DNA from: Spirochaetales bacterium
GTDB lineage: Bacteria > Spirochaetota > Spirochaetia > Sphaerochaetales > Sphaerochaetaceae
NCBI GenBank assembly: GCA_022771185.1
Contig: JALFCJ010000236.1
Span: forward strand, 1 to 32,587
Direction: 5' to 3'
DNA: 32,587 nt
Every line of letters starts with the position of its first letter. The first letter of the stretch is position 1. Below are positions 17,945 to 22,530 of the stretch, one piece after another. Position numbers and translations under genes: made by a program. The notes below the pieces were generated by a model that was not told where the DNA came from, ran no database searches, and was given only the letters and a program-made list of their open reading frames with translations.

Positions 17945-17986
17945 AAAAAGGCGGCCTGACACAATAGATATGTCGCCTTTTTTATT
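17945..17986 (+). terminator. Rho-independent terminator after the AAA ATPase gene
   Basis: AAAAAGGCG ... CGCCTTTTTTATT, with an inner GACA/TGTC stem. A T-run follows. Confidence 0.6.
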
Positions 17987-18042
17987 ACAGTCTCTTTTTT
18001 AGCTACGCTTAAAGATGTTCTTTCTATTATTTTTTTTAATTC

Positions 18043-18050
18043 TTTTATTA
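18043..18050. repeat. Candidate 8-bp target-site duplication (left copy) of the IS66 element
   Basis: TTTTATTA directly abuts G18051, the first nt of the IS. It is identical to 22523-22530. Both flanks are AT-rich, so a chance match is possible. Confidence 0.45.
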
Positions 18051-18051
18051 G

Positions 18052-19931
18052 GTCGAGTAGACAGATGCATTGCGTAGCCTCCAGTGCCAAGCAAATGCAT
18101 CCACCCCTCACAGAACCGTACGTGCGCTACTAACGCATACGGCTCTTCATTTTAATCTTTTGTTGTTACCAAAGCTTTACATATACTTTAGGACTCACGA
18201 TGGGCGTCTGTTTCATGAAGATATTGAACTTTTCCCAATTTATCCTCTTCTTTTGTCCTCTACGTCTTAAGACTCTATATAGCGTTTTGATGCAGTAGTT
18301 TCTAAATGAACTGAGACTTTTTGTATTTCCACTTACACCGTAATAATGATAGTGACCAAGCAGTTTAACATTTAGCTTAGTTACAATGTCCGAGATAGGA
18401 CAATGCATCACACTATATAACCATTCTTTTATGGCTTGCCTTTTAGCTTTCATCTTCTTTTTACTGGAAAGAACTACTACAACGTAAAAGCTTTTATGGA
18501 CCATTCCATTGTGAAAAGAAAAACCAAGGAATTCAAATGATTCTTTTGAACCACTACCTTTACCAAAAGGTAATATTCTAGTTTTGTCTTCAGCAATCTC
18601 AAGACCAAATTTTGCAAGTCTCTTTGGCAGTACAGCGTAAAATGCTTTGGCATCCTCTTCATACTGAAAGCATGCTAGAAAGTCGTCTGCATATCTAATG
18701 ATATAGGCTTCACCTTTTACATGTTTCTTTACCACCTTCTCAAACCATAGGTCGAGGACGTAATGAAGATAAACATTTGCAATATAAGGACTTATTAATC
18801 CCCCCTGTGGAGCGCCTAGAGTACTTTCCTGCATTATACCTTTATCCATTATTCCGGCTTTGAGAAATCTAATGATGTATCTGATAAGGTTTTCATCAGC
18901 AATATCGTTTCTAAGAAACTTTATTATCCATTCATGATTCATATTGTCGAAGAACCCTTTTATATCTGCTTCAACAACCCAACCTATAGGACGTTTATAA
19001 ATAATATCTCTAATGGTTTTGATTGCATCATGAGCACTTCTATCAGGTCTAAAACCATATGAACAATCCAGAAATCTTGGTTCATATACACCATTCAGCA
19101 CTTTTGCAAGCACACCTTGAACAAGCTTGTCTTCATATGACGGTATTCCTAAAGGACGAAGCTTTCCATTAGCCTTGGGAATGTATACTCTTTTGACCGC
19201 TTGCGGTCTATAAGAGAATGTTTTCATTCGTTTAAGCAAATTATCAAGATTTGCATCAAGGTTCCTGTTGTATTCATCTTTGGTAACACAATCGACTCCA
19301 ACAGCCTTGTTTCTGAGTTGTAGTTTATGCTCTTTCTCGAGATTCACTTTATTGACGTAGTGAATTAACGTCTGAAGCTTATCATGCTTCTTTGACAACA
19401 ACATTATTTCCTTTTCGTAATTTTCCACAATTTACGGAGCCTCCAGTACTCCATGTGTCCACTCTAAGGAACCGACTAAAATGTGTCTCCCTTCGCTCCG
19501 CTGTGTTTCCACAGTTTCATCACTACTATGAAGACATCCGACTACTTACATTTGCGTCCTGAATCTTGCTTTTACACTTGTATCCAGTCGTTCTGCTCAC
19601 TTTGAGCCAGATAAAAATGTAAGTCCTCCCAGGTATGACATACACACCTTGCACACTCGCCACGCTCTACGACCCCGATGAGTTCTCAACAGTCATCGCC
19701 TTTATCGATTGTTTCTTGCTGTCTGCTGCCCGGTTAAACGCATCGACACTCATACGATAATTTCACGAGGCTCAATCGCATTCAGGTTTCCCTTGCGGCT
19801 CTTGTGCTTTCCTGCCTACGCTTAAACCTAATCTCACGACTTCGGCTCCAAGGCTGGATACTGACTGCTGGCTGGGCTTTGTCAGGTTGGGAGTTTCACC
19901 CAACTATGTGTATGACACCGAACTGGCGCAC
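18052..19931 (-). mobile_element. Bacterial group II intron (about 1880 nt) with an intron-encoded reverse transcriptase/maturase
   Basis: On the minus strand the 5' end reads GTGCGCC (19931 downward). Domain V, GAGCCGTATGCGTTAGTAGCGCACGTACGGTTC, lies at 18145-18113. A domain VI helix (GATGCATT/AATGCATC plus an outer extension) has a bulged A at 18058, 6 nt before a GAC 3' end at 18052. The RT ORF sits in domain IV. The 3' boundary comes from manual folding and from reconstitution of the IS66 terminus. Confidence 0.85.
18166..19428 (-). CDS. Group II intron reverse transcriptase/maturase (no endonuclease domain)
   Basis: 420-aa ORF with RT motifs RPLGIPSYEDKLVQ, GFRP, GAPQGGLISP and the catalytic YADDF, plus a maturase X-like C-terminus. 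It ends without an HNH/En Cys-rich domain. Confidence 0.95.
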   Translation of the reverse strand: MENYEKEIMLLSKKHDKLQTLIHYVNKVNLEKEHKLQLRNKAVGVDCVTKDEYNRNLDANLDNLLKRMKTFSYRPQAVKRVYIPKANGKLRPLGIPSYEDKLVQGVLAKVLNGVYEPRFLDCSYGFRPDRSAHDAIKTIRDIIYKRPIGWVVEADIKGFFDNMNHEWIIKFLRNDIADENLIRYIIRFLKAGIMDKGIMQESTLGAPQGGLISPYIANVYLHYVLDLWFEKVVKKHVKGEAYIIRYADDFLACFQYEEDAKAFYAVLPKRLAKFGLEIAEDKTRILPFGKGSGSKESFEFLGFSFHNGMVHKSFYVVVVLSSKKKMKAKRQAIKEWLYSVMHCPISDIVTKLNVKLLGHYHYYGVSGNTKSLSSFRNYCIKTLYRVLRRRGQKKRINWEKFNIFMKQTPIVSPKVYVKLW

Positions 19932-19948
19932 TAACCGTCAAATAAAAG
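19932..19948 (+). repeat. IS66 left terminal inverted repeat (nt 2-18; nt 1 is separated from it by the intron)
   Basis: TAACCGTCAAATAAAAG compared with the right end, read inward, TAAGCGTCAAATGAAAG. Confidence 0.75.
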
Positions 19949-20003
19949 CCTAAGGCCATTCCATCAATCATTGAGTAACATAAGCTCATGAACATATGGA
20001 GGC

Positions 20004-20336
20004 ATGGTTATGGAATCATCAGTATCACCAAAGAACCGTTTATCAACATCAGAAAAGAGTAATTATGTATCTCAGTGGAAAGCATCTGGACTATCACAGA
20101 AGCAGTTCTGTAGGAATATGGGTATCAGCCCTACAACCTTTTCTGGATGGATTCATCAATTATCAGCAATAGAGAATAGGAAAGAAGTGCATTCGATCCC
20201 TTTTATTAAAGTAGAGAGTAAAACACCTTCTTTTCTGGAACATTCAATTACCATGGAATATCACGGAGCAAGAATTAACCTTCCTCAATCATTATTGCCA
20301 AAGGTTATTAAAGAACTCTCAAAGGTTAACGGCTGA
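20004..20336 (+). CDS. tnpA: IS66-family accessory protein TnpA (Orf1-like, HTH)
   Basis: 110-aa ORF. SGLSQKQFCRNMGISPTTFSGWIHQL is an HTH followed by the short beta-rich tail usual for IS66 Orf1. It starts 72 nt inside the left IR. Confidence 0.7.
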   Translation: MVMESSVSPKNRLSTSEKSNYVSQWKASGLSQKQFCRNMGISPTTFSGWIHQLSAIENRKEVHSIPFIKVESKTPSFLEHSITMEYHGARINLPQSLLPKVIKELSKVNG

Positions 20337-22026
20337 AGCCAGTGAGAATGTAATCTCCTATCCTCTCTTCATCAGGCCTAGCTTCTCTTATGGCTTTATC
20401 ATAGAAATCAAGTCTAGAGAGATCTGCATTCCAGGGAAGAAGAGAATCATAATCTTTCTCTTCTGTTGTTGGACCAAACCTGAGTACAAACTCCATGTAT
20501 CTCTCAGCATTAAGTCCACACTCTTTTGCGCTCATTAATAGAGAATAGAAGAAACAAGATGCATCAGCACCATCAATTGACTTGCAGAAAAGCCAGTTGT
20601 GTCTTCCTACGGCAATGCGCCTTGCTGCATTCTCACACACATTGTTATCTGGTGTTAGCTCTACATAATCAAGATAGACATAAAGGTTATCTTTATAGAA
20701 GCGCAGGTAATCCAATCCTTTCTGCAACTCTGCTGAGGTGACAAGCTTGCCAAACTCCTTATCTACCATCTCAAAAATGGAATCAATAATAGGCTTTGTC
20801 ATCTTCTTTCTCTTATCAATGAACTCTTCTGCTGAAATCTCTCCCTTATGAAGCTCCTTCCTGCAGTTCTTATCAATTGTGTATAACTGGGAATGAAGAT
20901 TCAACAGCTTGAATACCTTCATGTCTTTCTTGTTGAGTCTGGCATAGTTCTTGAAGTGCCTTACTGCATGTGTCCAGCAAACAGCATGCCTCTTTTGGTA
21001 GATTCTATTATCATCCATGTACCCTTTGAGCCCATCGGTCAATAATGGTCCATTGAAGCAGGCCTTCTTGAATCCATCAAAAAGGCATTCTCTCGTTCTT
21101 CCTATGCTGTAAAAGTAATTGATTACTCTCCGGTACACTCTTTTCTCTTCATCAAAGGTCGTCCCAACTCTTATCAGTACAAATGAATTAGAACTGGTCC
21201 TTCCACTTTCACTTTTTACATCCAACACTTCAATCGGCGTCTCATCTTGATTGAGAACTCTCATCTTGAATACTTGTTCTCTAAAGTACCTGTCAAAACC
21301 TGTCAGTTCTCCGTAATAGGTAATAAGCCAATTACTCATCGTTTGCCTTGAAAGATTAAGCCCTTGCTCTTTGCATGTCTCAGAATATCTATAGAGAGGA
21401 CAGCTGTTGTAGTATTTCTGGAATACAATATTCGCAACCATAGATGCATCACAGCTAAGAGCATCTGTCTTTGCATTATTGAATCCTACTATCTTTTTTT
21501 CTTCTGTCCCTTCTACCTCAACATCCGTTACCCATGTTGGATAGATTGCTTTAACAAGCCTTCTTTCAGAGGGCCTATAACAAAGCTTTAAAACAACTTC
21601 GTCTTCCCCTCTCTTGTAAACAATACCATCCTTTTCAATTGTTTCTGGTGCATCTGTTGTATAATCATCTGTGAAGATTGGGGTGTTAGCAGGGAATACC
21701 ATCCCTATTGTTCTTTTCTTTCTTGTTTTCTCTTCTTTTGCAGCAGAAGATTCTTCCGCTTTCCCTTCTGTTACTTCTTCTGCATATTTAATGATTGCTT
21801 CCAATTCAGGAAAGAGAAGCTGAACAGCTTCTGTAGAAGGTAAATAGTTCTTGGCATTTGCCAGTCTTCTCAACTCCTCAATATTTGCAATTATTCCTTC
21901 CAATTCTTTTACCTTGTTAAGAAGTACTACATTATCGTTATAGAGTGAGTAAACAACATCCTTCAGCATTGGTTTATCCATGCTTTCTACACTCTCTCTT
22001 GTAATGCTTATTTTCTTCTCACTCAT
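20326..22026 (-). CDS. tnpC: IS66-family DDE transposase TnpC
   Basis: 566-aa ORF with an N-terminal coiled coil, DDE_Tnp_IS66-like motifs LNQDETPIEVL, LLTDGLKGY and CWTHAVRHF, and a C-terminal LLPWN. Confidence 0.9.
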   Translation of the reverse strand: MSEKKISITRESVESMDKPMLKDVVYSLYNDNVVLLNKVKELEGIIANIEELRRLANAKNYLPSTEAVQLLFPELEAIIKYAEEVTEGKAEESSAAKEEKTRKKRTIGMVFPANTPIFTDDYTTDAPETIEKDGIVYKRGEDEVVLKLCYRPSERRLVKAIYPTWVTDVEVEGTEEKKIVGFNNAKTDALSCDASMVANIVFQKYYNSCPLYRYSETCKEQGLNLSRQTMSNWLITYYGELTGFDRYFREQVFKMRVLNQDETPIEVLDVKSESGRTSSNSFVLIRVGTTFDEEKRVYRRVINYFYSIGRTRECLFDGFKKACFNGPLLTDGLKGYMDDNRIYQKRHAVCWTHAVRHFKNYARLNKKDMKVFKLLNLHSQLYTIDKNCRKELHKGEISAEEFIDKRKKMTKPIIDSIFEMVDKEFGKLVTSAELQKGLDYLRFYKDNLYVYLDYVELTPDNNVCENAARRIAVGRHNWLFCKSIDGADASCFFYSLLMSAKECGLNAERYMEFVLRFGPTTEEKDYDSLLPWNADLSRLDFYDKAIREARPDEERIGDYILTGFSR

Positions 22027-22108
22027 GGAATTAAATATATCACAATTGGCTATTTAATTCAATATATTACAATAAATTAGTCTCTAAAAAACAAAGAAAT
22101 TAACTCCC

Positions 22109-22441
22109 TTAAAAGTGCGGAAACCTCCTCCACGGATCTCCTCCTTTTAGCATCTCTATTATCTCTTCCCAACTAGCTTCTATTTTTTCTTCTGTATCGT
22201 TTGGCCACTTGAAACCTAAACCGCAATTAAGTCTTTTCGATATCTCTAACCATCCATTTCCATCCCATGCTATTGCTGTTACCCTTCTATGATTCTTTCC
22301 ACAGAAGATAAAGATGCTTTTATCTTGCGGATTAAGATTCATTTCACTTCTTACCATCAATGATAGTGTTTCGGCTCTCTTCCTCATGTCTGTTACGCCT
22401 GGCTTGATGTAGATGCTATATGACTCTAGATTAATTTCCAT
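22109..22441 (-). CDS. tnpB: IS66-family accessory protein TnpB (Orf2)
   Basis: 110-aa ORF with IYIKPGVTDMRK, IFIFCGKNHRRVTAIAWDGNGW and SKRLNCGLGFKWP, as in IS66 Orf2. It starts 80 nt inside the right IR. Confidence 0.9.
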   Translation of the reverse strand: MEINLESYSIYIKPGVTDMRKRAETLSLMVRSEMNLNPQDKSIFIFCGKNHRRVTAIAWDGNGWLEISKRLNCGLGFKWPNDTEEKIEASWEEIIEMLKGGDPWRRFPHF

Positions 22442-22503
22442 CCCTTTGTAGTTCTCCTATCCTCATGAAGGAGTCTACTACTTTAGCTATTTTCAATTTG
22501 GAA

Positions 22504-22521
22504 CTTTCATTTGACGCTTAC
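22504..22521 (-). repeat. IS66 right terminal inverted repeat
   Basis: The plus strand reads CTTTCATTTGACGCTTAC; the reverse complement is GTAAGCGTCAAATGAAAG. Confidence 0.75.
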
Positions 22522-22522
22522 A

Positions 22523-22530
22523 TTTTATTA
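22523..22530. repeat. Candidate 8-bp target-site duplication (right copy)
   Basis: TTTTATTA is identical to 18043-18050. It is separated from the IS terminal C22521 by one A. Confidence 0.4.

Follow-up and report, generated by a model that had tools for sequence, protein, structure and literature searches.

The window analysed here is a stretch of 32,587 nucleotides from a Spirochaetales bacterium of the family Sphaerochaetaceae (contig JALFCJ010000236.1 of GenBank assembly GCA_022771185.1, a draft in 309 contigs), and the subject is a pair of nested mobile elements at positions 18043 to 22530. An insertion sequence (IS) of the IS66 family is framed by an 8-bp target-site duplication, and a group II intron separates the first base of this element's left inverted repeat from the second. 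In order along the plus strand, the locus contains the following features, where EBS and IBS denote the exon-binding sites of the intron and the intron-binding sites of its exons.

18043-18050, no strand: left copy of the target-site duplication, TTTTATTA, 8 bp, directly adjoining G18051
18051, minus strand: outermost base of the IS66 left inverted repeat and first base of the 3' exon (IBS3), G on the plus and C on the minus strand
18052-19931, minus strand: group II intron of 1880 nt, IIB-like, from Rfam matches and comparison with copies in other contexts
18052-18147, minus strand: intron domains V and VI including branch A18058, matched by RF00029 at 48.1 bits over model positions 1-77
18166-19428, minus strand: intron-encoded protein of 420 aa, reverse transcriptase and maturase with a YADD motif (Pfam RVT_1 1e-35, GIIM 3.7e-5)
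19663-19896, minus strand: ribozyme core of domains I-IV (RF02005, 119.3 bits, model positions 1-225)
19731-19736, minus strand: EBS1 (RNA sequence UAACCG), placed by the Rfam consensus structure in the terminal loop of a domain I hairpin and covarying with the 3'-terminal hexamer of the 5' exon
19932-19948, plus strand: remainder of the IS66 left inverted repeat, TAACCGTCAAATAAAAG, whose minus strand closes the 5' exon and includes IBS1 CGGTTA
20004-20336, plus strand: helix-turn-helix open reading frame (ORF) of 110 aa, TnpA-like, convergent with tnpC (Pfam HTH_28 9.9e-6, HTH_Tnp_1 2.5e-4)
20326-22026, minus strand: IS66 transposase TnpC, 566 aa, intact (Pfam DDE_Tnp_IS66 8e-55, and DDE_Tnp_IS66_C)
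22109-22441, minus strand: IS66 TnpB (Orf2), 110 aa (Pfam TnpB_IS66 1.3e-21)
22504-22522, plus strand: IS66 right inverted repeat, CTTTCATTTGACGCTTAC, with one extra A, unoccupied
22523-22530, no strand: right copy of the target-site duplication, TTTTATTA

The Host Element

The host element encodes TnpC and TnpB and has terminal repeats of the GTAAGCG type with an 8-bp duplication, as described for the IS66 family, where the repeats begin with GTAAGCG and the target duplications are 8 bp long (PMC11946415). Over 17 nt, the repeat arms TAACCGTCAAATAAAAG (19932-19948) and CTTTCATTTGACGCTTA (22504-22520) are 88% complementary. When G18051 and C22521 are added, the left repeat reads GTAACCGTCAAATAAAAG (GTAACCG..., with the intron removed) and the right repeat reads GTAAGCGTCAAATGAAAG (GTAAGCG...), and it is the difference between these two heptamers on which much of what follows depends. 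The left duplication abuts G18051 without a gap, and an extra A (22522) separates the right repeat from its copy of the duplication. The first-pass annotation of this DNA had correctly placed the 8-mer at 18043-18050 and 22523-22530, on either side of the composite element, but had missed this A. Counting both strands, TTTTATTA occurs nine times in the window, where shuffled sequences would give 2.8, and a copy at the predicted position by chance is unlikely, at about 1e-4 per position.

All IS genes in the window are intact by Pfam. The canonical order, with tnpA, tnpB and tnpC on a single strand, is not seen, and there is no ORF upstream of tnpB in the window IS66. A TnpA-like helix-turn-helix ORF is instead found after tnpC on the opposite strand, both in the window (20004-20336, plus strand) and in a second IS66 type, here called IS66-X (contig L159, 3091-3402, minus strand). 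These two small proteins are 25% identical (7e-5), compared with 35% for the corresponding TnpC proteins, and the layout is a sub-type of IS66 that does not exclude either element from the family.

The window IS66 is present as a single copy in its genome, and a look-up of TnpC returned only the same locus. The same genome contains a second, truncated IS66, consisting of tnpB and the first 211 aa of tnpC, at C105:679-1806 (48-64% identical), and the end of that element, ...TTGACGCTTAC, is unoccupied. As to the surroundings, the target duplication sits in locally AT-rich DNA. A strong terminator-like hairpin (GGCGGCC...GTCGCC, then a T run) at 17946-17990 closes the upstream gene, and the IS66 insertion point lies ~55 nt past this hairpin, between convergent genes.

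Boundaries and Identity of the Intron

The element between G18051 and T19932 has a ribozyme core, a bulged A in domain VI within the usual 6-8 nt of the 3' end, an ORF in domain IV that encodes reverse transcriptase and maturase, and a pairing between EBS1 and IBS1, and thus the structural marks of a group II intron. Both Rfam matches exceed the gathering scores of their models (49 for RF02005 and 40 for RF00029), and the RF00029 model ends exactly at 18052. The 5' end is GTGCGCC at 19931, so that the ribozyme starts with GUGCG, in accordance with the consensus GUGYG. When copies of the intron in other contexts are compared, similarity begins at this GTGCGCC and stops at ...CTACTCGAC (18052), and the flanks diverge at once. 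Rfam models and comparison therefore agree on the boundaries that had been proposed from the window alone, with the 5' end at 19931, the 3' end at 18052 and the bulged A at 18058. Covariance models and comparison together thus place the splice sites where they had been predicted, and joining the exons reconstitutes an IS terminus.

A base that deserves separate treatment is the one following the intron, position +1, which is C in all close copies. This C is assigned to the exon rather than to the intron, because the Rfam model stops before it, because a 66% identical relative carries A there, and because the 8-bp duplication of IS66-X, CTCTAAAC, abuts this very base. As the first-pass annotation had described, removal of the intron joins G18051 to T19932, and a GTAA... 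IS66 terminus is regenerated directly beside the target duplication. The 5' junction between IS and intron is identical in L155, an independent assembly from a sequencing run. Since the 8-bp duplication brackets the composite, the IS66 came first and the intron second.

In the 420-aa intron-encoded protein (P0001), no DNA-binding or endonuclease (HNH/En) domain was detected by Pfam, and relatives at 96-98% identity likewise have a length of 420 aa. Between P0001 and the class D protein of E.c.I3 the identity is 30% (6e-46), no better than with LtrA, T.el4h and group IIC proteins from the PDB (~30%, ~1e-42), so that these comparisons favour no one class. On plasmids, the best tblastn matches are at most 46% identical and are to ltrA genes of Bacillaceae and Clostridium. 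An exact look-up of the protein gave no match, and a scan of viral contigs for the junction gave zero matches. When metagenomes were scanned with a pattern for the EBS1 hairpin, 12 stretches were returned, of which three are introns and the others chance matches. The intron, like its host, is a single copy in its own genome. A search of that genome for further copies of either element, as the first-pass annotation had proposed, gave no second copy of the IS66 or of the intron, only the truncated IS66 on C105 and a second, unrelated group II intron reverse transcriptase (32% identity) at C283:5438-6430.

Target Recognition

The plus strand at 19731-19736 reads CGGTTA, so that the intron RNA carries UAACCG, and this EBS1 forms six Watson-Crick pairs out of six with CGGTTA, the final six IS bases before the intron. 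That IBS1 lies within the IS repeat and that EBS1 lies at 19731-19736 had been suggested from sequence complementarity, and the suggestion is now strengthened both by the location of the hexamer in a terminal loop of domain I and by covariation across the intron family. Among 46 distinct intron-exon pairs, in which more than ten different EBS1 sequences occur, the same loop pairs with the 5' exon at six of six positions in 23 and at five of six in 18, and with shuffled partners only 9% are perfect. Relatives of the window intron divide by EBS1 as follows.

Window intron: EBS1 UAACCG, 5' exon ending in CGGTTA
L169 intron: EBS1 UGACCG, 5' exon ending in CGGTCA
Introns of Bullifex porci, G154, G112, L118/126, L128, L159-L168, L171-L179, L189 and L190: EBS1 UAAGCG, 5' exon ending in CGCTTA (TGCTTA in two)

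The sister introns are 85-97.5% identical, and all three EBS1 variants occur among introns that are ~97.5% identical to each other. Exon and EBS1 have changed together among close relatives, which is compensatory change. EBS1 UAAGCG is also retained in introns that are only ~66-68% identical in DNA (G112, L118 and L128), which points to a target of long standing.

Beyond EBS1, a single-stranded stretch ~20 nt upstream, the putative EBS2, varies with the exon as would be expected, and in the IS66-X type it takes the form AAAAAUA paired with UAUUUUU over 7 bp. A IIA-type delta-delta' contact was considered for the first base of the 3' exon and rejected, as the U that precedes EBS1 on its 5' side is no partner for the +1 C. 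This exclusion leads us to infer a IIB-type EBS3.

Relatives of the Intron at Other IS66 Ends

Introns of this lineage occupy the same position of IS66 termini in at least three further insertions, namely at both ends of a second IS66 type and at one end of a third. In the second type, IS66-X, the TnpC of which is 35% identical to that of the window, the intron follows ...GATTTATTTTTCGCTTA at the tnpC-distal end. IS66-X with its intron is seen in L159, L160, L162, L164-L167, L172, L173 and L189, and L159 and L189 have different left flanks, so that the combination is present at no fewer than two genomic flanks. The duplication CTCTAAAC abuts the terminal base on both sides of the composite (left flank in L159, 3' exon in L160). 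In B. porci, a 90-94% identical relative of IS66-X carries the intron at the opposite, tnpB-proximal end. The third type is found on a metagenome contig (L128), where an intron ~66% identical in DNA comes after ...TTTGACGCTTA, past the C-terminal end of a third IS66 transposase, whose identity to those of the window and of IS66-X is 34% in either case. The three transposases are thus 34-35% mutually identical where aligned, the comparison with L128 covering just its last ~65 residues. The occupied end is tnpC-distal in the window, IS66-X and L128, and tnpB-proximal in B. porci. A further intron, in L170, lies ~100 nt past a fourth tnpB (28-33% related) and could not be placed at an end of that element.

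Besides copies elsewhere in the family and in gut metagenomes, there are two in B. porci, which match the window copy at 93% identity and each other at 100% along all 1880 nt, and this last identity suggests recent mobility. A distance of 8.4 kb separates the two B. porci copies within a cluster of GmrSD-type restriction genes (L034, 4192-6071 and 12620-14499, on NZ_VUNN01000012). One of them interrupts a GmrSD gene in the sense direction, and the frame is open across the junction spliced in silico (475 aa). A solitary right-end repeat of IS66-X in L184 (276-316, G154:C4) has its heptamer mutated to CACTTAC and is unoccupied.

More distant relatives, with 43-55% protein identity and mostly from metagenome-assembled genomes of Firmicutes, have 5' junctions of another form, in which TATAAT is followed after ~8-12 nt by GAGG and then the intron (L039, L041, L043, L045, L047, L054, L055, L057, L105 and L107). 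Such a site looks like a promoter -10 box with a leader or ribosome-binding region, and these introns may form a lineage that homes just past transcription starts.

Occupancy and the Terminal Heptamer

Whether an IS66 end holds an intron can be compared with the polymorphic base of its repeat, G or C, which either fits or misfits EBS1. In all four IS ends examined, occupancy matches this base. In the window, the GTAACCG end holds the UAACCG intron and the GTAAGCG end is empty; in IS66-X, a UAAGCG intron occupies the GTAAGCG end, and L159 and L189 both show a free GTAACCG end; and in the B. porci IS66, the GTAAGCG end is the occupied one. The right end of the window IS66, GACGCTTAC, had been noted from the outset as a second potential site. 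It is indeed present and unoccupied, and is a canonical site for the sister introns, but it has one mismatch to EBS1 of the window intron and is not an equally good target for this copy. Near-identical introns, one EBS1 base apart, are thus found in exactly those IS66 ends that have the complementary base, and this constitutes a base-resolved natural experiment.

The sequence of events that we regard as highly probable is that the IS66 element inserted first and that its left end was afterwards invaded through retrohoming by an endonuclease-less group II intron, by virtue of the EBS1 match, with the terminal heptamer as the sequence that would let the lineage colonise varied IS66 ends. In the first step, an IS66-family element would insert and create the 8-bp duplication. 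In the second, the mobile intron, which lacks an endonuclease domain, would enter the left IS end. Its RNA would read the IS terminus outward as 5'-CGGTTA/C-3', where the slash marks the insertion point, EBS1 UAACCG pairing with the 5' exon over its terminal six bases, a G in EBS3 presumably serving as partner of the +1 C, and a short, AU-rich EBS2/IBS2 contact being made further upstream. Reverse splicing would then take place at the bond that links bases 2 and 1 of the repeat, after which the encoded reverse transcriptase would copy the RNA, most likely primed by the nascent strand at a replication fork, as for other introns that lack an endonuclease.

The proposed target is the conserved heptamer with which IS66-family repeats begin, GTAAGCG or its variant GTAACCG. 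Given this conservation, the lineage should be able to settle at both ends of widely divergent IS66 elements, in each case with an outward orientation, and single-base changes in EBS1 would retarget it between the two repeat variants. One intron lineage would in this way parasitise very different IS66 elements through the sole sequence that they have in common. For annotation, this means that an IS66 copy apparently one base short of a repeat may carry an intron there.

Consequences for the IS Element

The intron is co-oriented with tnpB-tnpC, so that read-through transcripts could splice, which would restore the IS end in RNA alone; the predicted ligated exons across 18051/19932 are ...GACGGTTA-CTAATAAAAG. 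At the DNA level, 1.9 kb of intron separates the terminal G from the remaining repeat, and the base now beside TAACCG is C. The intron therefore probably cripples this IS66 end for transposition, as we infer from the rearranged terminus.

The alternative is that the insertion is neutral for the IS, either because the transposase uses the inner repeat or because the composite moves as a unit, in which case the intron would place no restraint on IS66. Every IS gene in the window is intact, and the presence of IS66-X with a right-end intron at two or more genomic flanks, which may reflect either efficient homing or movement of the composite, fits this alternative. Only the terminal base has been separated, but the base adjacent to the repeat has been altered (C for G, plus strand), and DDE transposases generally require the correct terminal nucleotides. 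We regard neutrality as rather unlikely, also in view of the arguments of Toro and colleagues that RmInt1 and RmInt2 restrict the dissemination of the IS elements in which they reside (PMC5894124). Should the insertion inactivate the IS end, such introns would limit the spread of IS66 in gut bacteria, as has been proposed for the rhizobial introns.

Preference for IS66 Ends

Another alternative is that the IS66 end is in no way special: any accessible CG(G/C)TTAC heptamer with a T-rich 5' side would serve, and the insertion in the window would be ectopic and due to chance. The genome of the window offers ample opportunity for this, with 80 other CGGTTAC heptamers and 159 CGCTTAC heptamers, and non-IS sites with the same heptamer are occupied elsewhere (the GmrSD gene in B. 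porci, a DUF4143 region, G154/L174, L168, L179 and L190). The single intron copy of this genome nevertheless lies in a CGGTTAC at an IS66 end, and IS66 ends account for only 3 of the ~240 heptamers, or ~1%. At least 4 of ~15 distinct junctions are IS66 termini, from three IS66 types and at both ends, which by a crude binomial estimate has a probability of ~3e-5, a figure that uses the heptamer background of the window's own genome while genomes differ in IS load. This excess, together with the retention of UAAGCG in the ~66-68% identical introns, makes chance insertion improbable.

By the evidence of the junctions, then, IS66 termini are a genuine, recurrent and preferred homing site, and the homing is preferential rather than exclusive. 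The first-pass annotation had put forward homing specific to IS66 termini. Recurrence and preference are borne out by the further insertions described above, and exclusiveness is not, given the copies in GmrSD, DUF4143 and intergenic surroundings. Other copies of the lineage share the IBS1/IBS3 heptamer, and targets devoid of IBS similarity, which had been named as an observation that would speak against the proposal, are not what was found.

Several observations weigh against the scheme as a whole. About two thirds of the ~15 distinct 5' junctions cannot be placed at an IS66 terminus: the sites include the GmrSD gene, the DUF4143 region, a position 5 nt upstream of a DUF1538 start and intergenic DNA, and among the remaining unplaced junctions one is beside a tnpB_IS66 gene and several have flanks too short to judge. 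The copies of IS66-X from different samples may represent one lineage and not independent events. Among 200 genomes of the family, none yielded a close copy of the window IS66, and hence no uninterrupted left repeat came to light. A search of 60 genomes from the genus for an empty genomic site was equally negative, and the flanking kinase gene is not conserved. In the window intron, EBS3 was not located, and the EBS2 pairing, which is tentative, would comprise just 4-5 AU-rich pairs. Finally, many of the supporting copies are on short-read metagenome contigs, which can be chimeric across the 1.9-kb intron repeat. L161 and L163 on the one hand and L164, L172 and L173 on the other have a common 3' exon and different 5' exons, and in L170 a CGCTTA exon is combined with EBS1 UGACCG, which does not fit it. 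These discrepancies are assembly chimeras across the repeat, and they call for caution in any analysis of intron context that uses short-read assemblies. Because such contigs can be chimeric, the conclusions lean on 5' junctions, and on the window because there the duplication confirms the insertion from left and right.

That the window contig is itself such an artefact, fusing an IS66 copy with an unrelated intron copy and flank via a shared repeat, is hardly credible: the genome is a fragmented draft, related contigs have chimeric joins and another, independently assembled contig of this locus breaks off within the intron, but a random join would not place an 8-bp duplication and the missing terminal G exactly past the 3' end of the intron, intron and window IS66 are each single-copy in the genome, L155 supports the 5' junction independently, and EBS1 fits this particular repeat variant.

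A wider generalisation, which we put forward only tentatively, is that GTAAGCG is a pan-family homing site that group II introns have exploited repeatedly, among them those of the gut spirochaetes studied here, with single-base EBS1 switches that track the repeat variants. The introns would then be widespread hyperparasites, putting IS66 ends out of action singly and so shaping IS66 copy number.

Comparison with Known Systems

Of the two closest parallels, RmInt2 and E.c.I3, the first is a class D intron that resides in both inverted repeats of ISRm17 (PMC4615759, PMC5894124). Like the intron of the window, RmInt2 has no endonuclease and a natural target in IS inverted repeats, which gives two sites per IS on opposite strands; the target is recognised through EBS/IBS pairing in which EBS2 is short, some copies are ectopic, and a control of IS spread has been proposed, Toro's group having suggested that introns of the RmInt1/RmInt2 type limit the spread of IS elements (PMC5894124). 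The host of RmInt2 is, however, not an IS66, as ISRm17 belongs to the ISNCY/ISDol1 group (PMC10194956). The intron lineages appear to differ as well, P0001 being 30% identical to the class D protein of E.c.I3, and the EBS3/IBS3 contact of RmInt2 is a U-A pair, whereas the +1 base of the window intron is C. The present lineage, moreover, targets a family-wide terminal heptamer, one base from the end, across transposases that are ~35% identical.

IS66-family elements as homing sites are known from two other introns. E.c.I3 of Escherichia coli (class D) is reported to target IS679 of the IS66 family (PMC3522654), and Sr.md.I1 of S. medicae lies inside an IS66 transposase ORF (PMC4615759). In E. 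coli 536 (L180), E.c.I3 is found inside tnpC at a conserved ...GRKNWL... motif, with ~180 nt of tnpC downstream. E.c.I3 thus differs from the window intron both in its site, which is within tnpC and not in the terminal repeat, and in its protein, by the low identity to P0001 already given.

RmInt1 in ISRm2011-2 is likewise a IIB intron without an endonuclease that lives on a multi-copy IS and inserts at replication forks, and it is said to block the spread of the IS (PMC5894124). Its target, however, is inside the transposase gene of an IS630-type element and involves no terminal repeat. Introns of group IIC, which insert downstream of terminators or attC sites, resemble the window intron in being compact, in lacking an endonuclease domain and in targeting DNA motifs rather than genes. 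Group IIC introns recognise a stem-loop and an IBS1 of 3-4 nt (PMC1702495), whereas the IBS1 of the window intron is 6 nt long with clear covariation, its domain V fits RF00029 from end to end, and no requirement for a hairpin is evident.

In a literature search, no report of introns at the terminal heptamer of IS66 elements was found. Introns that home to IS repeats and introns resident in IS66 elements are both known already, and what the present lineage adds to them is a clean natural case of retargeting by a single base of EBS1.

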